In this document: piece by piece, positions 13-45,582 of the stretch
Numbering within the stretch: position 1 is the first letter of the stretch
Layout: each line of letters starts with the position of its first letter
Sequence record: DQ121662.1
Direction: 5' to 3' (one strand)
Origin: Escherichia phage Jk06
DNA length: 46,072 bases
The notes under the pieces: model-generated
The model's database searches: none
What the model saw: only the letters and a program-made list of their open reading frames with translations
What the model was told of the DNA's origin: nothing
Position numbers and translations under genes: made by a program

Positions 13-76
13 AATAGCACGATTTGCTAAAGACTACCGCGGCAGCCTTTGCTATAGTTACTCCATCGAAACGAAA
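13..76 (+). promoter_or_regulatory. early promoter module (inverted repeat AATAGCAC-N4-TGCTAA, about 22 nt, TATAGT, CATCGAAACGAAA leader)
   Basis: IR at 13-30, TATAGT at 53-58, leader at 64-76, then RBS TAAGGAAT and ATG at 99. Same architecture recurs throughout the window. Confidence 0.55.
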
Positions 77-98
77 CATACTTACTAAGGAATACAAA

Positions 99-345
99 AT
101 GACTAACTTCATCAAATCAGCAATCATCGCATGCAGCAGTAATCATGACGGTAGGTTGTTCTTCTGGTCCGCGCCCTGACGGATGGTGTGCGACTCAGGC
201 GGGTGATGTTTGCGTAGCTAAGTGGAAAGGTGGTGTTATTGTTGCAGCTGGAGAGGTTGATATTCGTTATGCTGGCATTGAGTCAAAGGTTGGTGGAGGC
301 TACGGCGGCTCAGTTGCAGATCACGGCTCAAAGGAGTGGAAATAA
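99..345 (+). CDS. small hypothetical protein, frame apparently interrupted (ATG 99 frame stops at 179; ORF 145-345 continues in another frame)
   Basis: RBS-like TAAGGAAT 7 nt upstream of ATG 99; ORF 145-345 has no RBS of its own and ends in a TAATG overlap with the next gene. Confidence 0.3.
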
Positions 346-1307
346 TGCCTCAAGGTATCTTGATAGATTTGAATGACGGAAGGCCAGCAATGGAAATCAC
401 AGCTGGCTTGAGAGTTCCAGCCGTGACTGGTTCAATAAACACTAGCGGGTTAAGCTCACCAGCATCATCATGGGATTTCGGTCTGACTATGACTCCTGGC
501 TCAACAGCATTCTGCCTGCCAACTCAGGCTGTTTATGTTGATGCATATGATGTTATACCAGAAGTTTATTACATGAATGGGTTCTCGAAGGTTAATGATG
601 GGGTTGGAAGGATTACATTAAGTAACTTTAACGGCGCTAATGGTCGCATATTGCAGTTTGGCGGTCAGTGCTTTGAGATTTTACCAGCATCATCACAATC
701 AAGCCCCGGTGTCCTTGTTGAGAACTCGACTGACTTTACAGCGATATCAAGCAATTCCAGATTAATGACTGCTGCTTGGGTTGGTGGCATCCAGGTTAAT
801 GGCTCTGCATCATTGCCAGTTGCGGCATTCCTTTTGGTAAATGGGATAACCAAAACGGTATCACTTGAAAGTGATGGTAGTACGATATGGTGTAGGGATA
901 TAACGTACAATGGGATTGATGATGTTGCTGCAAGTACTTACGTTCAGTTAGTTATTTTCAATAATACACCTCCAGTAGCTGGTCCGGGTTTAACGATATC
1001 AAACAGCGCTGGGCAGATAGTTTTCTCTAGCGTCAGGAGGCCATTTGTTCTAAGTGGATTTATGCAGATTAATAATGGTTACCAGTCGGTGAATGGTGGG
1101 TTCTTCCCAATACTTAGATGCGGAGCGACAACTAGAGTCACTGGTGGATATAATAACTTACGATACAAGGGTGTTTGCATGTCTGGAGGTTCAGTTAGAG
1201 CCGTCCCAGGCACTGTTATAGGTAACTATTCAACTCAAACTGGCGCGCAATTCCCATTTGATACAAACATATCAATGGCACTTCCATTTATTCCCAACTT
1301 CTACTAA
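345..1307 (+). CDS. hypothetical Gly/Ser/Thr/Asn-rich protein (about 320 aa), fibre-like composition
   Basis: ORF 336-1307 in track; AAGGAG 8 nt upstream of ATG at 345; convergent with the tail module and ends at a hairpin terminator. Confidence 0.5.
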   Translation: MPQGILIDLNDGRPAMEITAGLRVPAVTGSINTSGLSSPASSWDFGLTMTPGSTAFCLPTQAVYVDAYDVIPEVYYMNGFSKVNDGVGRITLSNFNGANGRILQFGGQCFEILPASSQSSPGVLVENSTDFTAISSNSRLMTAAWVGGIQVNGSASLPVAAFLLVNGITKTVSLESDGSTIWCRDITYNGIDDVAASTYVQLVIFNNTPPVAGPGLTISNSAGQIVFSSVRRPFVLSGFMQINNGYQSVNGGFFPILRCGATTRVTGGYNNLRYKGVCMSGGSVRAVPGTVIGNYSTQTGAQFPFDTNISMALPFIPNFY

Positions 1308-1337: not shown

Positions 1338-4300
1338 TTACCATACTCCAACCACTACCCTACCTCCATTTGGTAAATTAACAGTTATGCCGTTATTGTT
1401 TATTACGACAGTATTGTTGGTTCCGTTAAACGCGAAGTTACCATTGTTAGCGTACAAACTACCGCGAACGGTAGCGTTACTTAACTCAGCAAAACCAGAT
1501 TTATCAATTGCCCAACCAGCACTACCAGCAACATAGTTGTTTGATTGAATCCTGTTACCAATCTTCGCGTTAGTAATTGAACCATCCTGAATCACCGCGC
1601 TCTGAATGAACACCTGGTTATTCTCCACAACGAAAGGCAGTGACCACTGACCGGATCCAGAACTAATACCGTTGCTGATTGCGAACCTGTTAGCATCGAA
1701 AATGAACTGACTGCGAACATTACCGCCGCTACCTGTTAACTCCATGCTCATACCAGCGCCATACTCAACCCCATTGTACTTAAGGCCTAGCTTGACGCCG
1801 TACTGAACACCAACCCCTTCGACAGTGGCATAAGAGTCAAGCTTCTGATTCAAAGACGCCTCGTTATCACCAAGCCTTGCGCTTAATTGAGTATCAGCTG
1901 TAGCCCTGGCTTCGGTCTCCGTAGCAAGCGCGGTTTCAATTGTCGTAATCTGACCAACAATCTCATCATCAATCTGCGCTTTAAGCTGCGTGAGAGCGTC
2001 CACACGGGCCTGAGTTTCATCAGCAATCAAACTTACAGCCTGACGATATTCAGCCTTCCTTGCGCCATTCTCGCGCTTCATAACGCGAACGTCAGTATCG
2101 TTTGCCAGAGCGTTCTCTATAATTGCCTCAGCCTGATTCTGGATATCCGTGTTTGCATCAATGGCGTTATGAAGTAGGTACTTGTAACCATCAGAGTTTT
2201 CGATATCAACCTTGATATCACCAATTATTGCACTTACGTCGTCAGATGCCATGCCCCTTACAAAATCAGTCCATGGCGATACGTTACCTATCCTGTCAAT
2301 AATCCTCGCTCTGTACCACCTCACGTTACCTGCTGGTAAAGTGGTGTGCCAGTATTCGTACTGAGGATACGGAACCAGTGTAAGCAGCGATGCGCTCTCT
2401 GGATTGTATGTACCGTCACCATTATCAGGAACCTGCTGAAGCTCAGTGTACGCAGTGTCAGCTGAATCAGTAGGAAAACCCCACTTAACCCTAATCCCGA
2501 AAACCTCATCATCAGATGCGGTAATTACAGGCGGCGCCGAAGGTTCCCCAATCTTGCCGGTCAGGCTAACTGTCGTTATATCAGACCAGGCAGATACTGA
2601 TTTCTGGTCAGTTACGGCACGAACCCTTACGTCGTAGATGCCAGCGTAAATTCCTTCAATATCAACCTCGGTGTTAGCCGTCTCTGGTACGTTAATCCAG
2701 TTACCATTGTTCTTACGCCATTGTACGTTGTATGTTTTCGCATACTGCACCTTGTCGTAACCAATAACCATCGTCTCAACGCTTAAACCCTGAACTACCT
2801 TGCTGTAACTAGTAACGGTGATATTTTCAGGTGGTAAAATCCTGTCAGGGTCAACGATACTTGTTGGCCTGTCGTCAATATTCACACCATAGTCAATCTC
2901 GTCATACTTGTTCGGGTCATACTGCACCGCAGTGATGCTGTACTGGAATGAATCCTCGCCGTCCGTGTTTGCTTTTTGAATTCCTGTCACAACGTATTGC
3001 TGCAACGCCAGATTCTGCTTGTCGATTGCAAATACCGTATCCGGCTGAGGTGTGAAGCTGAATGCTGTATTCAGTTCAAGCGTCAACTTATCGGCAGATA
3101 CTGAAGCGATAGTCCTGTACTCTGGGCTCCCATCTGGCTTGTTGATTAAAATCCTGTCGCCAGGGTCAGCATCAATAGCGAATGGCACGAACACCTGCAA
3201 GCCTGTAGCTTCAACAATTCGACCCGAAAGGTTTAATGTGTAGTTGCTTGACCAAGCCTGGTCATTAACGGCAATTACATCACCAATCATCGGAATCATC
3301 CCCTCAAGGCCAGTTGTGAACGTTACCGTTTCACTGCGAAGGTTTGTTTTCAGCAACCAACGCCCGCGACGGTTAGCTTCACTGCGCCTCACGCATCCAA
3401 TTGCAGTCAGGTCTACAGGGTTGTAACCAAACCGGCGAGTTGCTTCTAAATCGAATACTGGCTCGACGTCCTGCTGGTAGTTGTTCTGCTCGTCATCAAA
3501 CTGAACGTTAGCTGTCGTGTAAAGGCTCTTGTCGCTAGAGAATGTCCTGTTAAACAATCCATCAACAACGTTATCATTAGTGAACACATAGCTTGGCTGG
3601 CGCGGCCTGTCTACAACAATCCCGATTTGCTCACCATCATAGAAGGTTAAACCGCGGAAGATAGAACAGATGTCACGAATAAGCTGATACGCTTCCACTT
3701 TCTGCTGAATGACAACGTTACAAGTATATCGCGGCTCCATTCCACCCTTACCATCAGGAACCATCTGGTCGCAGAATTGCGCTGCTTCATACAGACCCCA
3801 TTTATCAATCTCAACACCAAGTTCTCGCTGATCTAAACCGTAACGCTGGCTAACCACCAGGTCATATAAAACCCAGGCCGGGTTGTCAGACCATGCCATT
3901 TTAAAGGTTCCATTCCATGCTCCGCTATAAGTTCTTGTCTCTGGATTGTAGTTTGTCGGCACACGGATAAGCTTCCACTTTTTCTTAATGGCTATCGTTG
4001 GGATGCCATTAGGGAACAGGTCAGAACTGAACTCCACATAAACAAGTGCCGTAAGAGGGTAGCGGAACTTAGCGTCGATTACTTCCTGATAGGTTGCAAT
4101 CTGCATTCCGTTAACCAGAGTGCTACTTGTTGAGTCTGGCGTTAACTTCCTAATACGAACAAGAGCGCTGCTAAACTCGGCTGGTAGGTTAACCCTGATG
4201 CTGCGGTCGTAACCTGTTGTAGTTTTACCGTTAGCCACGCCTCTGGTATATTCCGTGTACGCTGCGCCATTAACTGATAAATCGATTGCATATTCACATG

Positions 4301-4763
4301 TTGTTCCATTTAAATCTCCATTCTCTTCTTGCTTAACTAGTCGAGGCCAGAGCAGTTTAACGCGGATTGCTGATAGCTGACTGTTGTTAACTGCGATGAT
4401 GTAAGGTGTGTCGTTGTTAATTTCACGACTAACCTGAATCTCTGATGCCGCGCCATCTAGTCCTGCGATGTAATCTTGGGATTGAGTGCCGGCGCGAAAC
4501 TCAGCTGTCACACCTTCATAGTTGAATGAGTTATCCTGGTTCTGTACTGGAACGTCAGCAAGGTAAACATCCTTAAGTGAGAAGCTAGAATCAACTTCGC
4601 CATCAGCTACAGCCAGTAGCACCTTAATCTTGTTAAGTGAAATCAGGTTATCTTCTTGCTCTACAGGCGTGTGCGGCTTCTTGCTACCACCCTTGCTTCC
4701 ATAAATCTTTGGCAAATCGGCCATATCATATAACCTCGTTGTTTGTTTAACCATTTGTGCCAT
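1338..4763 (-). CDS. central tail fibre / host specificity protein (lambda J-like), 1141 aa
   Basis: Uninterrupted 1141 aa ORF; segments resemble lambda J by eye; last gene of the tail module after I/K/L/M-like genes. Confidence 0.85.
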   Translation of the reverse strand: MAQMVKQTTRLYDMADLPKIYGSKGGSKKPHTPVEQEDNLISLNKIKVLLAVADGEVDSSFSLKDVYLADVPVQNQDNSFNYEGVTAEFRAGTQSQDYIAGLDGAASEIQVSREINNDTPYIIAVNNSQLSAIRVKLLWPRLVKQEENGDLNGTTCEYAIDLSVNGAAYTEYTRGVANGKTTTGYDRSIRVNLPAEFSSALVRIRKLTPDSTSSTLVNGMQIATYQEVIDAKFRYPLTALVYVEFSSDLFPNGIPTIAIKKKWKLIRVPTNYNPETRTYSGAWNGTFKMAWSDNPAWVLYDLVVSQRYGLDQRELGVEIDKWGLYEAAQFCDQMVPDGKGGMEPRYTCNVVIQQKVEAYQLIRDICSIFRGLTFYDGEQIGIVVDRPRQPSYVFTNDNVVDGLFNRTFSSDKSLYTTANVQFDDEQNNYQQDVEPVFDLEATRRFGYNPVDLTAIGCVRRSEANRRGRWLLKTNLRSETVTFTTGLEGMIPMIGDVIAVNDQAWSSNYTLNLSGRIVEATGLQVFVPFAIDADPGDRILINKPDGSPEYRTIASVSADKLTLELNTAFSFTPQPDTVFAIDKQNLALQQYVVTGIQKANTDGEDSFQYSITAVQYDPNKYDEIDYGVNIDDRPTSIVDPDRILPPENITVTSYSKVVQGLSVETMVIGYDKVQYAKTYNVQWRKNNGNWINVPETANTEVDIEGIYAGIYDVRVRAVTDQKSVSAWSDITTVSLTGKIGEPSAPPVITASDDEVFGIRVKWGFPTDSADTAYTELQQVPDNGDGTYNPESASLLTLVPYPQYEYWHTTLPAGNVRWYRARIIDRIGNVSPWTDFVRGMASDDVSAIIGDIKVDIENSDGYKYLLHNAIDANTDIQNQAEAIIENALANDTDVRVMKRENGARKAEYRQAVSLIADETQARVDALTQLKAQIDDEIVGQITTIETALATETEARATADTQLSARLGDNEASLNQKLDSYATVEGVGVQYGVKLGLKYNGVEYGAGMSMELTGSGGNVRSQFIFDANRFAISNGISSGSGQWSLPFVVENNQVFIQSAVIQDGSITNAKIGNRIQSNNYVAGSAGWAIDKSGFAELSNATVRGSLYANNGNFAFNGTNNTVVINNNGITVNLPNGGRVVVGVW

Positions 4764-17268: not shown

Positions 17269-18022
17269 TAATTAAATTCTCCCATTTAGGAACAGCCCAG
17301 CAACGACACCCGTATTGCTGACCGGGGAATATCGCAAGGCCGTCAAGTTTTCCAGCGTCCGAACCATCTGATTTAAAGCTAACCCCCTCACGCAAAACGT
17401 GAGATGGTCGCTCTTTGTCGTCAAGTCTACCACGCCAAACATACTGAGATACACCGGCATCTTCAAGCCTTCTCCGCATAAGGTTTGAGTTTAGAGACCC
17501 TGTAATTCCAGCAGCGATATTTGCTGTTCTCTTTCTGTAGATTCGGTATCTATCATCAAGGTCAACAGTGTTACCAGCCTGCGCAGTAATGGCGTTGTTT
17601 ATGAAATCATCCTTGATGTTGTTTAGCAGCTTTGATGCACTTAACTGCGTGCCAACAATCCAGGAGTTCCTGGTGTCGAGCCACCATGGTTCATCCGCGT
17701 TAATACCATACAATCCTAGCGCAAGAACTACAGGATTATTCTTACCTCCGGAGTTGTTGGCCACCTTAAGGAATTGCGCCGAGTTATAACGATATATTGC
17801 TAGCGCCAGCGCAGGCAGAGTGGAAACAAAACCAGATAGCAGCGCTGAGATTGCATCTGAAAGGTCTGAATCTTCATCTTCAATCTCCTGCGCTGTGTCA
17901 ATTTTTAGCCTCTTTGCAGATAACTTCATTTGCTCAATAAGTTCAGATACCGCAACCAAAAGGCTGCGGTTAATCTGGCTCTCAATTATTTGCGGATACA
18001 TCCAGCGGGTCTTCTGATTCAT
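17258..18022 (-). CDS. minor head / head morphogenesis protein (Mu F-like, SPP1 gp7-like)
   Basis: 254 aa ORF ending with a GCRCWAVP-type Cys motif; directly downstream of the portal gene. Confidence 0.7.
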   Translation of the reverse strand: MNQKTRWMYPQIIESQINRSLLVAVSELIEQMKLSAKRLKIDTAQEIEDEDSDLSDAISALLSGFVSTLPALALAIYRYNSAQFLKVANNSGGKNNPVVLALGLYGINADEPWWLDTRNSWIVGTQLSASKLLNNIKDDFINNAITAQAGNTVDLDDRYRIYRKRTANIAAGITGSLNSNLMRRRLEDAGVSQYVWRGRLDDKERPSHVLREGVSFKSDGSDAGKLDGLAIFPGQQYGCRCWAVPKWENLINEE

Positions 18023-19255
18023 TAATTACAACCTCCGTTTGAATTGAGCCTTCACCAATCTTAACCTCAGTTGAAATTGCGCGCAACGTATCTCTTGCTT
18101 CGTCTGCGTCAATGATTCCAGCTGCAATCAATGCAGCAACTGAGTTAACATTCTTCTCAAGAATCTCAGATTTATCCTTGTCACTAACCTGCGATAGAGG
18201 GTTAAATTCTACTGACCACTCTTGCTCGGTTACGATGAACGGCAGCAGGAACTCAAGCAGAGGCAATAATTCAGCCTTTCGCTTACGGTCAACATAACCG
18301 TAGAAAGTCTCTAGAGCAGTGTTCTGGCTTGCTGACACACCACCAACATTCTTACCCTTAAGGATAATCTCATGAATACCGCTCAGAGCAACGATTCGAT
18401 CGAACTTCTGACTCAGAAATGTATCAATACCGCCAATATCTGAGTTGAGAACGTTGTACTCTTCACTATCCGCGTCAATCCCGATAGCCTGACCAACGCC
18501 ACTGTTATTATCCACTTGAGCCAGACGTAAACGAGCTGCTCCATCTGAATCATCACATAAGTCAGCAAGGCCTTTTGCTTTCCACACTCGCCTGCTGTTT
18601 ACGACGAAGTAACTGAGTAGCTCAGTCGCTCACAGTTCTGATAGTCGTCAATCGCGTCAATTAAGTCACTCAGTTATTACTGCTTGCGCTCCCAGCCATC
18701 GTTATTACGACGTAGGTTGTTAGGTACTCGCTCGCCATCAATGATGTGACAGCGTGTATAGTGCACATCGTAGAACGTTGCCGACCCGTTTGGCGTGATG
18801 CGGTAAGTTAATGGCTTACCAAAACGCGCGTTACGTGGATTCTCCTCGCGAGTCTGGACCTTAATTTGCTGCCGGTCGTATACACGAACCGTTTCAAGCT
18901 CCGCACCTTCACGAACCGGGCTGGTTAGCGCCCTTCCATCCTTCACAATTGCCACTACAGCAGCGCCACCGTATAGTCTCGCCCAGGCTAGTGCGTCGAT
19001 TACGTTATCTGAAAGGCCTAAATCATCCCATCGCGACCAGAATGCACCCTCATCATCAATGCCTTCAATGTTAAAGCCTGCGCCAAGCGCGACCTCTGGC
19101 ACGATATCAATAATTCGACGAACCAACGCACTACTGACGTAAAGCTGCTCAAGCTGTGCTGGAGCTGTCAGGCCAAGGCCGCCAAACTTTCCGTAAATCT
19201 CGCTACCATCAATCCCGTTAAGAAAGATGTTTGCGTAGCTATCTGCTTTTACCAT
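17982..19255 (-). CDS. portal protein, frame interrupted near 18590-18680
   Basis: Track ORFs 18677-19282 and 17982-18587 are contiguous; likely start MVKADSY at 19255 with RBS GGAG. Confidence 0.75.
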
Positions 19256-19270
19256 GTAATTTCTCCAATA

Positions 19271-19297
19271 AAAAAGCCCCATGTAGGGGCTAGTTTA
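19271..19297 (-). terminator. intrinsic terminator after moron gene, overlapping portal RBS
   Basis: AGCCCCTACATGGGGCT hairpin followed by TTTTTT on the minus strand. Confidence 0.55.
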
Positions 19298-19716: not shown

Positions 19717-19760
19717 ATTATAAGCCATCCATGGCGATTATCTTTACCAATTCGTGCTAT
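19717..19760 (-). promoter_or_regulatory. promoter module variant (IR-like ATAGCACGAATTGGTAA, 22 nt, TATAAT)
   Basis: Reverse complement of 19744-19760 matches the repeated IR motif with one change; perfect TATAAT at 19717-19722 on the minus strand. Confidence 0.5.
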
Positions 19761-22137: not shown

Positions 22138-22213
22138 TGGTGTTCCGCACTGGACTCGAACCAGTAACTGAGACTTAGGAGGTCTCTGCGTTATCCTGTT
22201 ACGCCAGCAGAAC
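22138..22213 (-). tRNA. tRNA-Arg (anticodon CCT), 76 nt with encoded CCA
   Basis: Hand-folded cloverleaf: 7 bp acceptor stem with one G-U pair, D-arm GCGT/ACGC, anticodon stem GAGAC/GTCTC with loop CTCCTAA, T-arm ACTGG/CCAGT with loop TTCGAGT, discriminator A, CCA. Confidence 0.75.
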
Positions 22214-23486: not shown

Positions 23487-23551
23487 CGTCTCATTTCGAT
23501 AAAGTAATGGTAACGCATCCTTGCGATGGATGTTTAGCAATTTGTGCTATT
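23487..23551 (-). promoter_or_regulatory. early promoter module (IR plus leader variant TATCGAAATGAGA)
   Basis: IR TTTAGCAATTTGTGCTATT at 23533-23551 on the plus strand (reverse orientation), leader-like element and RBS before a small minus-strand ORF starting near 23475. Confidence 0.45.
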
Positions 23552-24673: not shown

Positions 24674-24692
24674 TTTAGCAATTTGTGCTATA
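24674..24692 (-). promoter_or_regulatory. inverted-repeat promoter/operator motif copy
   Basis: TTTAGCAATTTGTGCTATA on the plus strand, i.e. AATAGCAC-N4-TGCTAA oriented with minus-strand transcription. Confidence 0.45.
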
Positions 24693-25777: not shown

Positions 25778-26487
25778 GATGATTCCTCTCGTTGATTGTT
25801 GTTTGTTGCCTCGTTTCGATGAAATGACTATAGCAAAGATTTACGTGTCTATAAATGTATTTTTTTGTTTATTTTAAAATTGATACGCTTTTTTCCCTGC
25901 ATGCCGCATCGTTGCTGGGTGTGTACAGGCGTCTACGTGCGTCTACATATAGATGAGGGGGTTCTAGCTATATCCCCCTATATTTTCCTACAAGGTAGTA
26001 CAATTCCTACAGTGTAGGAATAAAAATAGAAATTTAAGCAAACCAACCTATATAGTAGCGTACAGATGATACGCTATATATACATAATACTATATATAAT
26101 AATAATAATAGTCTAAGTCCTTTATATATAAGGATATTTTAGTGTATATGGATTGTATCAAGGCGTATAAATTGTAAATGTGGATACGGTCGACAATCGG
26201 TAGACAGCGGACTACGCGTATATAAAAGAAGTCTCTCCGCGAGCGATAAAACCAACCAACTATTTGATCCAAACCTCCTTTCATTCAATCCATCCATCCA
26301 TCATTGCCAAACTGGCAACAATCAATAAACCTGTTGCACTCGATGAAATATTGCTTTATGTGTAATAGTCATGCTAATCATCGCAATGCCTGCAACAATC
26401 CATAAATCTGACGAATAGCACTTTTTGCTAAAGACAAATCCACCATGACTGGCTATAGTTTGCCAATCAACAGAGAGGAGAAGAAAC
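25778..26487. other. AT-rich intergenic region with iterons, palindromes and microsatellites between divergent early operons (candidate origin / control region)
   Basis: GCGTCTAC x2, palindrome ATTCCTACAGTGTAGGAAT, (ATA)n, TCCTTTATATATAAGGA, (CCAT)3, TTGCCAAACTGGCAA; no ORF of 60 aa or more. Confidence 0.5.
26414..26459 (+). promoter_or_regulatory. early promoter module (IR plus TATAGT)
   Basis: AATAGCACTTTTTGCTAA at 26414-26431, TATAGT at 26454-26459, RBS GAGGAG and ATG at 26488. Confidence 0.5.
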
Positions 26488-26942: not shown

Positions 26943-27095
26943 ATGCTAAAGCCATCTGACTTGAACTATTACGATCTAGAAACCATAGCCAAGTACAGCG
27001 GTAAGGGTTGGCCTGTTGGTGACTACTTCAAAGAAGATTTGATTGAGAGCTTCAACATCGTCCAGAAGGAAATTGCAAAAGCAGCAAAGAAATAG
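26943..27095 (+). CDS. hypothetical small protein (50 aa)
   Basis: ATG overlapping the upstream stop (TAAATG); not in the ORF track because it is shorter than 60 aa. Confidence 0.35.
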   Translation: MLKPSDLNYYDLETIAKYSGKGWPVGDYFKEDLIESFNIVQKEIAKAAKK

Positions 27096-27153
27096 CACGA
27101 ATTGCTAAAGCCCTTCGGGGCTTTTACTGTATATTCATCTCATCGAAACGAAA
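27091..27153 (+). promoter_or_regulatory. early promoter module (IR, terminator hairpin, TATATT, CATCGAAACGAAA leader)
   Basis: IR at 27091-27108, hairpin GCCCTTCGGGGC, TATATT at 27130-27135, leader at 27141-27153, ATG at 27174. Confidence 0.55.
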
Positions 27154-27720: not shown

Positions 27721-27766
27721 AATAGCACTTTTTGCTAATGACACTACCCGCTTCGGCGGGTATATT
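27721..27766 (+). promoter_or_regulatory. early promoter module (IR, hairpin, TATATT)
   Basis: AATAGCACTTTTTGCTAA at 27721-27738, hairpin CCCGCTTCGGCGGG, TATATT at 27761-27766. Confidence 0.5.
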
Positions 27767-27803: not shown

Positions 27804-27920
27804 ATGAAAAACATCTCTAAAGCAGTTGATGCGGTAATGGAACAAGTAATTAAGTTTGGTTTCTTTGGCTTCATGGGCGCAATCGCTGTTGTAGTTGGCA
27901 AATGTCTGGTTGGTCTTTAA
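27804..27920 (+). CDS. small hydrophobic protein (38 aa, single predicted transmembrane helix)
   Basis: ATG at 27804 with RBS TAAGGTG; sequence MKNISKAVDAVMEQVIKFGFFGFMGAIAVVVGKCLVGL. Confidence 0.35.
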   Translation: MKNISKAVDAVMEQVIKFGFFGFMGAIAVVVGKCLVGL

Positions 27921-27982
27921 TGGCACTTTTTGCTAAAGACCTTAACAACAAAAATTGATATATTCTCTTCATCGAAACGAAA
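27919..27982 (+). promoter_or_regulatory. early promoter module (IR, TATATT, CATCGAAACGAAA leader)
   Basis: IR at 27919-27936, TATATT at 27959-27964, leader at 27970-27982. Confidence 0.55.
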
Positions 27983-28216: not shown

Positions 28217-29808
28217 ATGATAATGTTTGATTTTAATGATGACAAATTGACTGTTGAACAAGTAATGGCTGTTGCCGCTCAGGATGGATTACCTCCTTTA
28301 CGTGTTGCTATTAATGCGAACGGTTATCGCCAGAGCGCATCATTCTGGAAAGCTCCGGTTGAGATTGATTCTACTGGCGACAAGTATCCTGTTATCTCGC
28401 TTGGTAACGACTATGATGTAGTTGGCAAACTATCAAGCAACATTGCTCGTTCTGTTCAGTTTCCTGAATCATCTGCTTATATGCACTTCCTTGGTTGCAT
28501 CTCGGCAGCTATGTTAGGTCGCTTTACGGTTGAGTATCACGGAACTCAACAACCAACATCACTGTATGTAGTGACCAGCCAGCCTCCATCAACTGGTAAA
28601 TCTGCCATTAACTCGCTGTCTCTGGCTCCAATGATTGCAGAGACTGAGCGACTAAACGATCTGCGTAAGCGTGACCGTAAAAAGATTATGGCCAAGCTGT
28701 CGGCTCTGGCTAAAGAAATGAAGCAGGAGAAGTCGCCTTCTGAGATGGCTGGTTTGTTTGAGGAGAAGGAGGAGCTGGAAGATAAGCTCGAGAAACTTTG
28801 CGACATCGTATTCCCTGTATCTGATACTACTCCTGAAGGTCTGGCACGCATTAACCATCGTCAGGGTAGCTTCGCTGTCATCTCGGATGAGGCGACGAGC
28901 GTCAACTCACTGCTGGGCATGACCTATGGTGATGGAACAAAGAAAACAAACAGCGAACTGGTACTTAAGGCCTGGGATGCTGGTAACGTATCTATCGCGC
29001 GTGCGAACGCAGAGAACAACATGAGCTTTATTGCTATGGGGTGTATTTCTGTAATTGCGCAGGATGAAACAATAGTCGCAATCATGAATGCTGGTGCTCG
29101 CGGTATTGGTGTATCCGAACGTTTCTTGCTTGTGCGTGAAAAGTCATTCCTTGGTGAGCGTGTTTTCGTCGATGATAATGGCGAGTCAACATATGAGCCG
29201 ATTGACGGAGCGTGAAGGGCTGATTACTTCCGTCTTTGTTCATGAAATTATGAGTGAGCAAGATGTTAAGTTGACTATTAGTAACTCAGCAATGAAGCAC
29301 CTTAACCGTGCTCGACAGGAAAATGGAGCCACACCTTGCAGATGGCGGTAAGTATTCACACACAATGCTGCGCGGCGCGTTAGGTAAAATGGATAAACAG
29401 GTAATTCGCATTGCTGCAGTTCTTCACACTATCCGTAACTGGTTTAACCCCAATGGCGGTAGTCCGCAGAAGTCCAGGGAGATTGAACTGGAAACCATGC
29501 AAGAGGCTTTGTTGATGTTTGGAGAACTTAGTAAGACTTACTTATCCTCAGCTAACGCAGCTGGTCATGCTGGCGATAACGCTGAGATGAACAAGTTAAT
29601 TGATATCCTTATCAAGCAAGGCAAGAACAGTAAAGGAGTTGTGGGTTTGCGTTCACTTTATGAAGCTGCGCGTAAGGTTCGACCTTTCGAGTCACAGGCT
29701 GGTGTTATGGCTAAAATTAAAGACCACTTACTGCCGATGCTTGATGAGAAAAACTATACCTGCCTGATTGGTGACAAGGTATATATCAATCCACGGCTGC
29801 TGGGGTAA
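28217..29808 (+). CDS. P-loop NTPase-like protein (about 530 aa), reading frame interrupted between about 29215 and 29310; long paralogue of 24675-25235
   Basis: Track ORFs 28217-29215, 29088-29351 and 29308-29808 are contiguous; Walker A-like SQPPSTGKSA; N- and C-terminal segments match the short paralogue. Confidence 0.55.
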
Positions 29809-31923: not shown

Positions 31924-32000
31924 TCTATTTCCTATCTCGTTGTCGATGAAACAAATATAGCGCCTTTCGGCGCTATAGTCTTTAGCAAAAAGTGCTATTT
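31924..32000 (-). promoter_or_regulatory. early promoter module (IR, hairpin, TATATT, CATCGACAACGAG leader)
   Basis: IR TTTAGCAAAAAGTGCTATTT at 31981-32000 (reverse orientation); hairpin AGCGCCTTTCGGCGCT. Confidence 0.5.
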
Positions 32001-34224: not shown

Positions 34225-34298
34225 TGAGCCGCCTCTCGTTTCGATGAACACACTATAAGCCATCCCTGGCGATATGTTTTAACAAAAAGTGCTATTTA
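34225..34298 (-). promoter_or_regulatory. early promoter module (IR variant TTAACA, TATAGT, CATCGAAACGAGAGG leader)
   Basis: IR at 34277-34298 on the plus strand (reverse orientation); a 20-codon hydrophobic mini-ORF lies in the leader. Confidence 0.5.
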
Positions 34299-34938: not shown

Positions 34939-34984
34939 AATATAATCCATCCTTGTATTTTAGTTTTAACAAAAAGTGCTATTT
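34939..34984 (-). promoter_or_regulatory. early promoter module (IR variant plus TATATT)
   Basis: IR TTTTAACAAAAAGTGCTATTT at 34964-34984; TATATT on the minus strand at 34939-34944. Confidence 0.5.
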
Positions 34985-35800: not shown

Positions 35801-35863
35801 TTCGTTTCGATGAAGTAACTATATCGCATCCTTGCGAAATCTCTTTAGCAATTCGTGCTATTT
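35801..35863 (-). promoter_or_regulatory. early promoter module (IR, TATAGT, CATCGAAACGAA leader)
   Basis: IR at 35844-35863, TATAGT on the minus strand at 35818-35823, leader at 35801-35812. Confidence 0.55.
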
Positions 35864-36232: not shown

Positions 36233-38178
36233 TTAGAACTCCTTATTAGCAATATTATCGCCACCTTTAGCGGTCTTGCGGTGAGTTACCCTCTTAGGAG
36301 CATGGATGTACTGCGAATACTCCATAATCTTGCGAGCATTGCGATATGCAGCCATATATCGCTTAGCGTTCATGTCGACTACGTGACCTTTAATTCCATT
36401 GTTCAACCAGAGTGTTTTACATACTCGATGGTCAGACTCTACGAAGAAAACCTCATGAGCTTTAAATGTCCCACCCATGCCATCATCAAGGATGTAGTTG
36501 TAGATGATTCCTGATTGGTTCTTTGTTAGCCCAACCTTAAAGTCAACAACATCAAACCAGTCGTTCTTGCGGTAATGTTTGCCGCTTAACTTGAGATTTG
36601 GATCAAGCAAAGTGCAATCGCAACCCCTACAAATCTTAGCTGCAACGTCATTCTGAACTCCGCAGCCTTTAACGATAACCTTTCCGGTTCGTGGGTCTTT
36701 CTGGTCTTCACATGTGCGACTAACCCAGAAATATTCGCAGCGATTATTATTCTCATCAATATGCATGCAACGTCGAGCAAAGAAGCTGTTCTCTGTTCCG
36801 CATACTGGACACTGCTTAGTCTCCTTGCCATTATCTTTCGTAGCTGATATTGAGCCTGCTCAAGAATTGGATTGAAGTACAATGATGCCATAGAGTCCAT
36901 CGTTCCTGCGAAGTCCAGTACCAAATGGTCATTCTTGACCATTCCTTTATCTTCATGGAGCTTCTTAAGCTTACGCATTCCTCGACCAAGTAGCTGAACC
37001 AGGAGCGTAAGGCTACCAATCTTACGCAGAATAACGCTTGTATCCCATGTAGGCACATTTACGCCAGTGGTTAGCGCCTGAACCTGAAAGCAATATTTAA
37101 TCTCCCCGCTAAAGCACTTATCAAGCAACTCCTTGCGCTGCTTCTCGCCAGTCTTTCCAGTTATAATGCAGAACTTTTCACCTTCAGGAAGGTAACTTGC
37201 GGCTTCGTGGCAATGGCGCTCACCTGCGCATGTTACCAGAACTCCATTCCTGTCTTTCGCGGCAAGCCATACTTTCTTCATTATCTCCGCTGTCATTGTT
37301 CCAGATGCCTGAATCTTTTTATCCATGGCTTCAAGCTGGGCTTTAGTGTAATCCTGAACACCATCTTCAGATGATGCATCAAACTCTGACAGGTCGTAAC
37401 CAACGCCATCAGTAGCACCAAAGTTTGTCGGAACCACGGAACCGAACTCGACCAGGTAGTTTGTATCGATATTTGTGACCGTCTCACGCCAAAATCCCAA
37501 CTCCTTTTTATTTTCAACAACTATTGGCGTAGTTCCACGGAAAGGAGAACCAGTCAGTCCAAAGATACGAAGATTCTTGCCATACTTAGCACGGCAGCGC
37601 TCCATTAAAGTCAGTATGATTACCGTATACTGGCTACGTCCCTTATCTGATGCCTGTTGCGCAGTCTCATTGTTATCTAGAGCCTCAGCCACATCCTGGT
37701 CATCAACATGGTGACACTCATCAATAGCAACTACCGCAGGGCAGAAATCGCCAAGTGACCTCTCAAGCCCGCCAACTACTGTACCCTCAGAGCCAACCAC
37801 CACAGGGAAATAAGATGATTTTATTCCAAGCCCAGAGCAATAGATGGAGTTAGGAACCCCGTAATCAGAAATCTCAGAAGCATTCTGGCTAACCAGCTCT
37901 GCCTGACGAGCAAGAACAAGCATAGGCAAGCCAAGCTCAGAGCAACGCTTAGCAACCATACCAAAAACCAGAGTCTTACCAGCAGAAACTGAAGCCATTG
38001 CGATAAATGGATGCTCATAGCGACTAATGCGCTTTGCAATCTCATTGTACATAACACACTGATAGCTATACGGAACCATACCGTTAGAAGAGGTGAATTT
38101 AGTTTGAATCTCTTTAATCTTATCTTCGCCCAATTCTTCAATCTGTTTTTGTATTGTTTTCAATCGGTTTTCCATAAT
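36233..38178 (-). CDS. SF2 DNA helicase with C-terminal zinc-ribbon region, frame interrupted near 36800-36840; start taken at MENRLKTIQ
   Basis: Motif I SVSAGKT, motif II DECHH; Cys-rich C-terminal continuation CPVCGTEN...CRGCDC in ORF 36233-36766; the first 16 track codons overlap a promoter module. Confidence 0.75.
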
Positions 38179-38189
38179 ATCAAATGCCT

Positions 38190-38256
38190 TTAATGTTTGT
38201 TCGATTGACGATATAATAACAGCCATCTAAACCAATGTTTAACAAAAAGTGCTATT
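38190..38256 (-). promoter_or_regulatory. early promoter module upstream of helicase
   Basis: IR TTTAACAAAAAGTGCTATT at 38238-38256 (reverse orientation), then TATATC and CAATCGAACAAAC leader before the internal ATG at 38178. Confidence 0.45.
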
Positions 38257-39795: not shown

Positions 39796-42012
39796 ATGGC
39801 AATTTATGACGCTGGAACTGCATCGCTTGCAGCTGACGGAACTGTAACTGGTGTTGGCACCACGTGGAGGCAACCACTAACACTAATCCGAGTTGGCGCA
39901 ACAATGATTTTTAACACCACCCCGACAAGCATTGTTACTATCGCTGAGATTTTAAGCGATACAGAGATTCGTGTATTCAATGATAAAGGTTTTACTGCGC
40001 CAGCTGGGACTCAGTACTCAATCCTTGCTCATGACGGAATTACTGTCCAAGGTCTTGCTCAGGACGTTGCTGAGACACTTCGTTATTATCAGTCCCGTGA
40101 AACAGAGGTTGCAGCGGCAGTTGATGCTTTTAATCAATTTGATTCTGATTCTTTCCAGCAAAGCGTAAATAATGTCAACATGCAATCTCAGCAAGTTGCT
40201 GTTGATGCTGCTCAAGTTTCTTCTGACAAAGATCAGGTATCTTATGATAGGCAGTTAGCTGAAAGTAGCGCTAACTCGGCTTACTCTTCAGCTACAATAG
40301 CAAGCTCTGCTGCGGCTTCTGTGTCATCTGCTCTTGTAGTTGATTTCTCAAATGGTGGAGAAATAAACTCAAGAACTCAGCCTGCAATTTACTTTAATGA
40401 CAATCATGTTTCGGTTTATTACTGGTCTGGTAGCGTTCCAAAATCCATACCACAAAACTCATCACCACAGTCTACAGGTGGTATTGGAGTTGGTTTTTGG
40501 ATTCAACAGGATTACACAAGAAGGTTTGAATCAGTATCAGCAATGACAAACTCTGCCAGAATTTATGACTTAGAGGTTGTCTATTGTGATTCTTACATTG
40601 GTGGTCTTGGTTATGGTGGTGGGTTCTTTGTTTGTAAGCCGGAGTCATCGTTATCATATGGATTATCTTCAGGATTGGTTTTTGAATCAAGTACCGGTTA
40701 TTACTGGGAAAGAATCTGTAGCGGGGAGCTGTCGCCTTGCGAACTTGGAGCTATTAAGTCATCGACATCAGACTCAACGACACAGATACAGCAAATCCTA
40801 GACTCTGGGCTGGCATTAAAGCTTGATAGCGACTACATGGCATCAAACCTGGTAATGAGAAATAAATCTTGCTCTATAATTGGTTTTGGCAAGCACAAAT
40901 CAAGAATAACTCAGCTTAGTTCATCAATTGGCTCTTTAATTGAGGTATCTGATTCTTGCTCGCTCATTCATATTGAAGGCATTGCTCTTTACGGCACTGG
41001 AGCCCAGCAAGACACGGCGTTTACTGATGGTACTGCTGGGATTTACATCCCTACGCCGACTGGGTTATCAACCAATTACCCATTCAACACTGGTGCTGAC
41101 CCTAGGAGGGACTTAACGATAAGAAACACTCACATTGCTGGGTTTGATGTTTACGGAATTTTCGTTGCTGCTGGTAACTACTCTCCTGTTCTTGATGATG
41201 TTCTTATTCAGCACATAAAAAAAGACGGATTGATTAACGAAACAACAGACTTCACATGGAATAACATACAGGTAAACACCTGTGGAAGAAATTGTCTAAT
41301 ACTTAGGAATGCCGGAAACTGTAGGATTGTTGGCGGTAAGTTTATTTGGTCGGGTTGGTCGGCTTATAATGAGCTTGATGATGCTTATGGCATCCTGATT
41401 GATAACTGCCAAAACATCACCATGTCAGCTATAGAGGCGCAGGATTGCGGTGGTGACGGTGTTAGAATTGTAAACTCTAGAAATGTGGTATTTAATGGAT
41501 TAAATAGTAACAGGAACAGCATAAACTCAAACTACAGAGATTATAACGTTTCGTTTTCAAATAGCTCTGTAAGAATCTATGGTTTTGTTGGGCTTAACTA
41601 TGTATCTAACAATGGCGATGGAAGGCCAACTTCCGCTGGCAACTTCAGATTCCTTGACTCAAGATCTGATGTTGTGATCGATGGGGTTGTTGAATCTGGT
41701 TACTTTGGCCCAAATTTCTCAGGGGACACTAACTATGTTGCTGAGTATTCAGGAAACCTGAAGATAAACGGACTGATAGACAAAAGGAAGACAAGAATTA
41801 AGCCAGCAAACGACACTTCAGCTTTTGATGGGGTCTCTAATACACCAGTATTCGCCGCAGCGGCATCATCAGTTGGGCAGCAATATTGGCTAAGGCTTTC
41901 ACAGGCAAATAAAGATAAGATTATATGCACTGGATTTGACCCGTCACTAGGTTTCACCGCTACATGCAATATATCGCCGACCATAACTGTTGTGAAGACT
42001 TTAACCTTATAG
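39796..42012 (+). CDS. tail fibre / tailspike protein with probable right-handed beta-helix domain
   Basis: 738 aa uninterrupted ORF; fibre-like N-terminus MAIYDAGTASLAADGTVTGVGTTW; Asn/Gly/Ser-rich repeats with periodic hydrophobics in the C-terminal two thirds. Confidence 0.65.
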   Translation: MAIYDAGTASLAADGTVTGVGTTWRQPLTLIRVGATMIFNTTPTSIVTIAEILSDTEIRVFNDKGFTAPAGTQYSILAHDGITVQGLAQDVAETLRYYQSRETEVAAAVDAFNQFDSDSFQQSVNNVNMQSQQVAVDAAQVSSDKDQVSYDRQLAESSANSAYSSATIASSAAASVSSALVVDFSNGGEINSRTQPAIYFNDNHVSVYYWSGSVPKSIPQNSSPQSTGGIGVGFWIQQDYTRRFESVSAMTNSARIYDLEVVYCDSYIGGLGYGGGFFVCKPESSLSYGLSSGLVFESSTGYYWERICSGELSPCELGAIKSSTSDSTTQIQQILDSGLALKLDSDYMASNLVMRNKSCSIIGFGKHKSRITQLSSSIGSLIEVSDSCSLIHIEGIALYGTGAQQDTAFTDGTAGIYIPTPTGLSTNYPFNTGADPRRDLTIRNTHIAGFDVYGIFVAAGNYSPVLDDVLIQHIKKDGLINETTDFTWNNIQVNTCGRNCLILRNAGNCRIVGGKFIWSGWSAYNELDDAYGILIDNCQNITMSAIEAQDCGGDGVRIVNSRNVVFNGLNSNRNSINSNYRDYNVSFSNSSVRIYGFVGLNYVSNNGDGRPTSAGNFRFLDSRSDVVIDGVVESGYFGPNFSGDTNYVAEYSGNLKINGLIDKRKTRIKPANDTSAFDGVSNTPVFAAAASSVGQQYWLRLSQANKDKIICTGFDPSLGFTATCNISPTITVVKTLTL

Positions 42013-42025
42013 CTAAGGGACTGGT

Positions 42026-42508
42026 TTGGAGTTAATAGTAATGCTCTTACTGCAGTATAACGTGATGGCATCAGGAGAACACAGTGTCTCATTGTTAATA
42101 TCAGCATCAGGTGAAACAAGAGTTTTATCAGGTGTGTTGCCAGTCTCATCAAGAATGGTCAACGGTGGTACTTACAATATTGCTCTTGGTTTTGATGTAT
42201 CTGGTAAGGTTTGGTGGAGCATCTTAAACCTGAATACTGGATTTAGAGTTAGAAGGTCATTTGATTCTCAGTATATAGATATTGATGTCAGACCTATACT
42301 AACAACAGCTGGTAACTATGTAACCATGTATTCAGGTCAAGGCGCTGGTGATGTAGCTTGCTCTGGATATGGCTTTGGTGTTTACGTTGGCAGCTATTCA
42401 GATGAGTCTGATTATTGCGCTTCAAGATACTATTCGCTTAAAGGTGGTGTTGATTTGACAAAACAATCAGTATTTTTGAGTTTGAATGGTGATGTAACGT
42501 CACAATAA
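42026..42508 (+). CDS. hypothetical protein downstream of tail fibre gene (possible fibre-associated protein)
   Basis: 160 aa ORF, Gly/Ser/Tyr-rich; ends at a bidirectional terminator. Confidence 0.4.
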   Translation: MELIVMLLLQYNVMASGEHSVSLLISASGETRVLSGVLPVSSRMVNGGTYNIALGFDVSGKVWWSILNLNTGFRVRRSFDSQYIDIDVRPILTTAGNYVTMYSGQGAGDVACSGYGFGVYVGSYSDESDYCASRYYSLKGGVDLTKQSVFLSLNGDVTSQ

Positions 42509-43670: not shown

Positions 43671-43733
43671 TTGTTGTCGATGAGGTAACTATACCCCATC
43701 GATTTAATACCGTTTTAGCTATTCGTGCTATCT
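43671..43733 (-). promoter_or_regulatory. early promoter module (IR, TATAGT, CATCGACAACAAAG leader)
   Basis: IR at 43714-43733, TATAGT on the minus strand at 43688-43693, leader at 43671-43682. Confidence 0.55.
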
Positions 43734-45018: not shown

Positions 45019-45582
45019 TTAACTTCTGGCAAAGAATTTCACACTGAGATTGATATGAGTAACCATCTCAAGAGCATCAAAGAGCCTGCTAGATTCAAAT
45101 TTAACCTTATAAAGCTCATCGTGAATCTCTTCACCATTTGAAGCCTTATCAATATACTTATAAATAATCTTCTCTAGCTTGTAAACCTCATCTTCGGCGC
45201 GATTGCGTGCCGATAGCTCCTTGTTGGTTTGCTGCTTCTCTTTTAATACCAGATCGTAAGATACCATCTTGGCCATGTGCTCTTTGAGTAACTTGTTCTC
45301 CCGCTCAAGGTGAAGCCAGCGGTCAATGATTCTGGCAGCAATTTCCTGGCTATAACCAGCCATCAAAATCATCGTTTCCCTGAATTTTAGGTTATACATT
45401 GGTAAATCCTTGTTCTGGCTTGATTTGTAGGAGGATACAAATTTGTATTCTCCTCCATCACCAAACTGCCTATTAAGCATATCCCTAATATCCCTTAGTA
45501 CTATAAAGTGTTCCTTTCCAGTTAATTCAGCAATCTCAAGGCTACTCATGGTTACGTTTTCATCAATATTCATCAGATTCAT
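45019..45582 (-). CDS. Rha-family phage regulatory protein (antirepressor-like)
   Basis: N-terminal motif SSLEIAELTGKEHFIVLRDIRDML typical of Rha regulators; coiled-coil C-terminal half. Confidence 0.6.
   Translation of the reverse strand: MNLMNIDENVTMSSLEIAELTGKEHFIVLRDIRDMLNRQFGDGGEYKFVSSYKSSQNKDLPMYNLKFRETMILMAGYSQEIAARIIDRWLHLERENKLLKEHMAKMVSYDLVLKEKQQTNKELSARNRAEDEVYKLEKIIYKYIDKASNGEEIHDELYKVKFESSRLFDALEMVTHINLSVKFFARS

Follow-up and report, generated by a model that had tools for sequence, protein, structure and literature searches.

Phage cassettes that combine a receptor-binding protein (RBP) gene with a small lipoprotein gene are already known: they were assigned to the receptor LptD in 2021 and have been described by genetics and structure in 2025. 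Allelic variants located downstream of gpJ were matched to terminal receptors, small in-frame deletions in lptD stopped phages carrying the variant considered here, and phage Rtp was predicted to target LptD (Maffei et al., 2021). Mutants with loop deletions in lptD are not infected by phage OzMSK (Black et al., 2025). The RBP of phage Oekolampad (RBP_Oeko) has been solved inserted in an open, 27-stranded LptD, and the Rtp lipoprotein, Rtp45, was resolved by cryo-EM on LptDE, where it sits between LptE and LptM on the periplasmic side and its hairpin shifts extracellular loop 4 outward by up to 20 Å; structure predictions of Rtp45 had been wrong (Dunbar et al., 2025). According to a 2026 preprint, this RBP family tracks LptD specificity at >30% identity and full coverage.

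The same logic, a dedicated RBP and a small, periplasm-facing lipoprotein that alters its receptor, is found in phage T5 with pb5 (oad) and Llp; there the receptor is FhuA, and Llp acts through long-range allostery and not by displacing loops sterically (Dunbar et al., 2025). In the locus described here, the lipoprotein and RBP genes overlap in one operon, unlike T5 llp and oad, which are transcribed as separate units and at different times. The Cor proteins of T1, phi80 and N15 presumably follow the same logic as T5 pb5/Llp. The type of locus considered here was reportedly noted as early as 2006.

We analyzed the 46,072-bp record of Escherichia phage JK06 (DQ121662.1; hereafter the window), which starts with acgcgtatatcaaatagcac, has a GC content of 44.0% and encodes one tRNA-Arg(CCT). 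The same opening bases are reported for JK06 by Kropinski et al. (2012), who describe a 46.1-kb genome of 44.0% GC. Positions 14-1331 of the window very probably form the LptD-specific host-recognition cassette of this Rogunavirus, the anomalies seen within it being errors in the record. The family membership of the proteins, the reading frames, the indels, the order of the genes and the repetition of the promoter module are shown by the sequence comparisons themselves, whereas binding to LptD, the mechanism of exclusion and the docking on J are what we infer from homologues; dependence on LptD has been shown by experiment in relatives only, namely OzMSK, AugustePiccard, VogelGryff and Oekolampad.

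In Rtp, rtp44 and rtp45 (PDB 9rps) have the same order and orientation beside a J-like gene. Rtp45 is 77% identical to the window lipoprotein, with which it has the signal peptide, the lipobox and Cys30/Cys38 in common, and Rtp44 belongs to the same Pfam family as the window RBP and aligns with it over its full length, yet the two are only 38.6% identical. The two phages also differ in subfamily (Braunvirinae for Rtp, Rogunavirinae for the window phage), in five additional residues in the window lipoprotein and in the three single-base indels that the cassette genes carry in the JK06 record. OzMSK/MSK (Black et al., 2025) has an RBP that is 85% identical, annotated in OzMSK as putative LptD-binding, and a lipoprotein that is 90% identical. 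OzMSK has the same promoter module as the window, the same overlap of the two genes and the same arrangement of the terminator; its upstream neighbour is a DNA methylase gene, and both of its cassette genes are intact, unlike those in the window record. RBP_Oeko of Oekolampad (Bas18; PDB 9rpt/9rpw/9rqi, with open LptDE) is homologous over its full length and shares N- and C-terminal motifs and a GxPFxxW segment with the window RBP. Oekolampad is, however, a Dhillonvirus from outside the Drexlerviridae, the sequence relationship of its RBP is only distant, and its exclusion lipoprotein and Rtp45 share only about 35% identity (Dunbar et al., 2025).

Single-base indels in the deposited record

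The putative superinfection-exclusion lipoprotein gene (99-345, plus strand) follows a ribosome-binding site, AAGGAA at 87-92, that is invariant in a four-phage alignment. An earlier note, made from the sequence of the window, had described a small ORF with a CSS/GCSSG segment here and suspected a problem with its frame. The ATG at 99, the ribosome-binding site and both motifs are indeed present; the motifs, however, lie in two out-of-frame ORFs, one at 99-179 (26 aa, with CSS) and one at 145-345 (66 aa, with GCSSG). The suspicion about the frame proved correct, as an extra T at position 132 (GCA-T-GCAGCA) breaks the reading frame, such that 99-131 supply codons 1-11 and 133-345 the remainder. 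T132 is absent from C119, phiJLA23 and OzMSK in the alignment. When positions 80-200 were used as a blastn query, the matching span was one base shorter than the query in all of the 60 listed phage records, and the best match differed from it by that gap alone. Deletion of T132 yields an 81-aa protein that is identical at 81/81 residues to the annotated lipoprotein of AHP42 (AHP42_27).

The repair also changes how the N-terminus is read. The earlier note had considered it unconvincing as a lipoprotein signal, and this is true of the deposited sequence, in which T132 parts the n- and h-regions (in the frame of 99) from the TVGC motif (in the frame of 145), so that signal peptide and lipobox do not share a frame; we attribute this failure to the sequence error. 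Once T132 is removed, a textbook Sec/lipoprotein signal appears, with a Lys-containing n-region, a hydrophobic h-region (mean Kyte-Doolittle hydropathy 2.24), the lipobox TVG↓C and Ser at +2. The repaired protein conforms to a PROSITE-type lipobox rule.

A second disturbance lies in the RBP gene (345-1307, plus strand; 320 aa), where the segment 822-858 is read out of frame because a G is lacking after 821 and there is one G too many at 857/858. DNA and protein alignments indicate that this -1/+1 pair scrambles 12 codons, corresponding to RBP residues 160-171, and turns GGIPFGKWDNQN into AAFLLVNGITKT. With both indels corrected, the protein is identical at 320/320 residues to JLA_2 of phiJLA23. 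The motif lost through the scrambling, GIPFGKW (GxPFxxW), is kept even in RBPs that are only 38-40% identical.

Over positions 1-1400, the window shares 99.2% identity with phiJLA23 and 99.1% with both C119 and BECP10; these phages belong to the genus Rogunavirus (Drexlerviridae). In a comparison among C119, AHP42, phiKP26 and the window, the window has 22 private 1-nt indels, versus 0 in C119, 10 in AHP42 and 1 in phiKP26. These indels are clustered (for example, five in 18588-18690 and five in 41993-42051), and they interrupt the genes for the portal, two helicase-like proteins and the lateral tail fibre. Numerous errors and frameshifts have been described in the JK06 sequence (Kropinski et al., 2012). 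Since disruption of the portal gene would leave a phage non-viable, and given this published statement, T132 and the 822/858 pair are most likely sequencing errors in the deposited record and not biology.

If T132 and the scrambled RBP segment were instead real, JK06 would represent natural variation, with the exclusion lipoprotein lost and the RBP altered. Such a reading could draw on the position of T132 outside any homopolymer, where it makes a clean GCATGC, and on the RBP ORF remaining open through the compensating pair. We consider it improbable, because the same record holds the many other private single-base indels, clustered and in part disrupting the essential portal gene; because the sequence has been called error-rich in the literature; and because the 12 scrambled residues replace a motif conserved down to RBPs of 38-40% identity. 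Furthermore, the flanking DNA is about 99% identical to that of relatives, and single-base repairs restore 100% protein identity. Programmed frameshifting at position 132 was rejected as well: there is no slippery or homopolymer sequence at the site, relatives have the gene in one frame, and many other genes in the record are broken.

Family assignment of the two proteins

The repaired lipoprotein matches Pfam family PF24052 (Phage_lipoprotein) with 128.8 bits (E = 7.7e-38; gathering threshold 27 bits) over profile positions 1-80. The unrepaired 66-aa ORF scores 104.6 bits over profile positions 16-80 only, and so lacks the signal-peptide part. PF24052 was the sole lipoprotein family found in a Pfam scan at E <= 1, and no NCBIfam model matched either the lipoprotein or the 320-aa protein. 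The repaired protein aligns with Rtp45 in PDB entry 9rps (chain D) at E = 9.7e-33. Cys30 and Cys38, which form a disulphide pair in the Rtp45 structure, are invariant in a five-sequence alignment; the additional residues of the window protein relative to Rtp45 are an insertion of SKVGG after residue 61. These matches support the proposal of the earlier note that the small ORF next to the host-recognition gene encodes a receptor-blocking superinfection-exclusion lipoprotein, and place its predicted product in the Rtp45 family.

The RBP gene starts within the end of the lipoprotein gene, the stop codon of the latter overlapping its start codon (TAATG, 343-347), and its ribosome-binding site, AAGGAG at 331-336, also lies in the end of the lipoprotein gene. 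The ORF runs from the ATG at 345 to 1307 and, as the earlier note had stated, encodes a protein of 320 aa that is rich in Gly, Ser, Thr and Asn (36.9% in sum). Its description as fibre-like has to be abandoned. The protein matches PF20051 (DUF6453) with 429.1 bits (E = 1.1e-128; gathering threshold 25 bits), residues 4-297 covering profile positions 1-291 of 291, and residues 2-320 align with the Oekolampad RBP bound to LptDE (9rpt_C) at E = 2.5e-59. Homologues were detected by tblastn in 424 phage records. Identity is 40% to the RBP of AugustePiccard and, by tblastn, 39.5% to that of VogelGryff at 92% coverage, while the alignment with Rtp44 has 100% coverage. The receptor-prediction preprint of 2026 delimits the LptD family by >30% identity at full or near-full coverage to RBPs of LptD-dependent phages, and the window RBP falls within these limits. 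In the literature, the fold of the family has been modelled as a pair of lectin-like beta-sandwiches whose tip carries loops and whose base is conserved; such a protein is a compact tip protein and not a fibre. We conclude that the 320-aa protein is an RBP of the DUF6453/Rtp44 family, predicted from its sequence to bind LptD.

It is highly improbable that the small protein is instead a FhuA blocker of the Cor/Llp type, as in T1, phi80 and T5. Its position by host-recognition genes is similar, it would likewise be a small outer-membrane lipoprotein, and the record of one relative names the homologue "Cor superinfection exclusion protein". PF24052 is nevertheless its only family match, and a PDB-wide phmmer search (E <= 1) returned Rtp45 on LptDE as the only related chain, along with unrelated noise, and detected no similarity to T5 Llp, chains of which should be in the library, given that a structure of FhuA with Llp has been published. 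The family of the partner RBP is specific for LptD and not for FhuA, and phages with this cassette lose infectivity on lptD mutants. Rtp, moreover, reportedly does not need FhuA. The analogy with T1-like and T5-like phages drawn in the earlier note thus fails as regards the receptor, which is predicted to be LptD by family membership and by the lptD dependence of relatives.

We likewise give next to no credence to readings in which the 320-aa product is not the terminal RBP but a lateral tail fibre or a "moron" membrane protein for host takeover, despite its Gly/Ser/Thr/Asn-rich composition, the phrog_1265 label ([quoted passage not shown]) and the "membrane protein" entries in RefSeq, since membership of its family coincides with LptD specificity in several phage families and a separate large lateral fibre gene is located elsewhere (39796-42012, plus strand).

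Gene order and transcription signals

Downstream of the RBP gene and convergent with it lies a gene for a 1141-aa protein (1338-4763, minus strand), which we regard as a lambda-J-like tail-tip or central fibre protein because of its Pfam domains FNIII-A_GpJ, Phage-tail_3 and Phage_Tail_Tip; its relatives are annotated as tail fibre or J-like tail tip. The coordinates of the locus (99-1307) and its convergence with the J-like gene are as given in the earlier note. The RBP gene is thus directly downstream of a gpJ homologue and paired with a lipoprotein gene, and the order J-like gene, convergent RBP gene, lipoprotein gene is the same in C119, phiJLA23, OzMSK, AugustePiccard and Rtp.

A GC-rich hairpin, AAGCCCCGAAAGGGGCTT, separates the convergent genes at 1314-1331. 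Its predicted folding energy is -14.5 kcal/mol on the plus strand and -16.3 kcal/mol on the minus strand, and none of 200 shuffled sequences was as stable. In a terminator scan, a qualifying T-tract was found on the minus strand, that of the J-like gene, only; the tail on the plus strand is UUAAUCAUUU. Terminators are annotated on both strands at this site in the AHP42 record. The hairpin would be a good intrinsic terminator for the J-like gene, and less effective for the operon on the plus strand. The "shared terminator" of the earlier note is a reasonable description, with the plus-strand direction as the weaker of the two.

Upstream of the cassette, the earlier note had marked a full promoter module at 13-76. 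A repeated module is indeed present at 14-74, with a geometry that is non-canonical for sigma-70. It begins with an inverted repeat, ATAGCACGATTTGCTA (14-29, plus strand), with half-sites TAGCA/TGCTA in the arrangement ATAGCAC-N3-TTGCTA. A -10-like hexamer, TATAGT, follows at 53-58, 23 nt past TTGCTA and directly preceded by TGc, and 3' of the hexamer is a conserved leader element, CATCGAAACGA (64-74). The core of the module, ATAGCACGATTTGCTA, occurs in 14 copies in the window at <=3 mismatches, versus 0.57 expected by chance. A TAnnnT hexamer is located 21-23 nt past the repeat in all 14 modules; in 11 of them an ATCGAAA-like element occurs at the same offset, 6 nt past the hexamer, followed by a ribosome-binding site and a start codon. 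Because the module is also conserved ahead of the lipoprotein gene in C119, phiJLA23, OzMSK and AugustePiccard, the last of which belongs to another subfamily yet keeps it, we regard the module as real and as part of the cassette.

A scan of positions 1-1500 for canonical sigma-70 promoters, in which the -35 and -10 hexamers are 16-18 nt apart, called no promoter at 13-76. TTGCTA cannot serve as a -35 element, since it lies 21-23 nt from the hexamer. The only site returned by the scan was inside the RBP gene, versus 2.9 expected in shuffled sequences; a site at this chance level gives no evidence of an internal RBP promoter. The inverted repeat at 14-29 is probably the binding site of a phage regulator, for which a Rha-like gene at 45019-45582 and a homologue of a 157-aa regulator are candidates. 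Its centre lies about 43 nt 5' of the likely transcription start, a position that corresponds to activator-site geometry and in our reading suggests dependence on an activator.

Most copies of the module precede small ORFs and genes for replication and recombination (helicase, Erf-like protein, exonuclease). One copy precedes a virion-structural gene adjoining the portal gene, and the tail cluster of C119 contains one. A literature search on transcription timing in T1-like phages returned nothing relevant; the "early" timing ascribed to the cassette in the earlier note is a conjecture. As a tentative suggestion, the cassette could be transcribed apart from the late structural operon, by way of a regulator-dependent class of promoters used by replication, recombination and small early-type genes; equally tentatively, this class could be defined by a repeat about 43 nt 5' of the start, the lack of a usable -35 element and the conserved CATCGAAACGA leader.

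Proposed working and implications

By analogy with its homologues, the cassette could work as follows. The phage-specific promoter module would drive a bicistronic, translationally coupled operon. Its first gene would give an 81-aa prolipoprotein of the Rtp45 family that is exported by Sec, lipidated at Cys20 and relieved of its signal peptide; given Ser at +2, the mature lipoprotein is expected at the inner leaflet of the outer membrane. There it would bind the periplasmic face of LptDE between LptE and LptM, and its hairpin would thread into the lumen of LptD and push extracellular loop 4 outward. LptD would then be closed to the phage RBP, such that superinfection is excluded and progeny are not wasted on infected cells or debris. 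Exclusion by a protein of the Rtp45 type is itself suggested by the structure. The second gene would supply the 320-aa RBP, the conserved base of which may bind the distal end of the J-like tail-tip protein non-covalently, as in the literature model of RBP attachment (Maffei et al., 2021), while its tip would enter the open state of LptD and so lead to irreversible adsorption. Phages of the JK06/Rogue1 group are O157-specific and use the lateral fibre as well.

The cassette looks odd in JK06 only through what are most likely single-base errors that break the lipoprotein frame. A single error-rich sequence read alone can mislead through such indels, and close relatives settle the matter. For annotation, the JK06 record should carry the repaired lipoprotein gene and the corrected RBP, and the RefSeq/PHROG label "membrane protein / moron" is misleading for this RBP family. 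Since LptD is essential, cassettes of this kind are relevant to phage steering, to phage-resistant production strains and to the prediction of receptors from genomes. If the tentative reading of the promoter module were true, the RBP, a structural protein of the virion, and the lipoprotein that antagonizes it would be produced jointly before tail assembly, in a ratio set by coupling at TAATG. This would be an unusual solution to timing, and it raises the question of how newly made RBP escapes titration by LptD, or vice versa.

Repeated promoter module and its candidate regulator

The promoter module that precedes the exclusion lipoprotein gene occurs 14 times in the window, each copy comprising an inverted repeat (ATAGCAC-N3-TTGCTA), a fixed gap of 21-23 nt, a TAnnnT hexamer and a conserved CATCGAAACGA leader. 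The inverted repeats lie at 14-29, 19745-19760, 23535-23550, 24676-24691, 26415-26430, 27092-27107, 27722-27737, 27920-27935, 31983-31998, 34280-34295, 34967-34982, 35846-35861, 38240-38255 and 43716-43731. Since the 21-23 nt spacing to TAnnnT exceeds -35 geometry, TTGCTA is not a -35 element. The gap between repeat and hexamer holds a GC-rich hairpin in three copies (27092, 27722, 31983).

A regulatory gene of the Rha family (Phage_pRha, anti-repressor-like) is found at 45019-45582 (-), on the strand opposite to the lipoprotein promoter and upstream of it across the ends of the record. We consider its product a candidate binder of the repeated inverted repeat. Because this product is 187 aa long in the window vs 243 aa in C119, the gene may, like others in the record, have been truncated by an indel; with phiKP26 as the reference, indels were seen in this region at 45061-45394.

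Private indels, annotation and tRNA

Comparison with three relatives revealed 19 further single-base indels private to the window and frequently clustered (18588-18690, 19281, 20333, 20966, 29235, 29320, 31779, 31925, 36198, 36834 and 41993-42051), consistent with the published description of the JK06 sequence as error-rich. Private indels break the portal gene into 17982-18587 and 18677-19282, split helicase-like genes (28217-29215; 36233-36766 and 36586-38175) and likewise disrupt the lateral tail-fibre gene (39796-42012).

The lipoprotein is annotated in C119 (record L001, 1524-1844) and phiKP26 (record L007, 25715-26035) as an over-long 106-aa ORF whose TTG start codon falls within the promoter module (equivalent to window position 24). 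Its start in OzMSK and AHP42 is the ATG equivalent to window position 99, with a proper RBS. The RefSeq and PHROG label for the RBP, 'membrane protein / moron', is misleading.

The single tRNA-Arg of the window (22138-22213, -; anticodon CCT) reads the rare AGG codon, and a single tRNA-Arg has likewise been reported in Rogue1, JK06 and the AHP phages.

Matches to the RBP and lipoprotein in other phages

In Citrobacter phage HCF1 (matched record H170, 29326-29442), only RBP residues 1-39 have a counterpart (59% identity), located at the beginning of a tail protein that is unrelated beyond this segment. This restricted resemblance suggests a common N-terminal adaptor that would attach differing RBP bodies to the J-like tip.

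Searches with tblastn also gave weak but significant matches in Kuravirus-like podophages of Escherichia/Shigella with genomes of about 75-78 kb (matched records H119-H130 and H162-H169, e.g., SU10, KBNP1711, Paul, SGF2, Bas88, Bas92 and Bas94), with identities of 35-55% over part of the lipoprotein and of about 24% across about 93% of the RBP. As these podophages match both proteins, the pairing of an LptD-type RBP with an exclusion lipoprotein, or a relative of that pair, may be present beyond siphophages.
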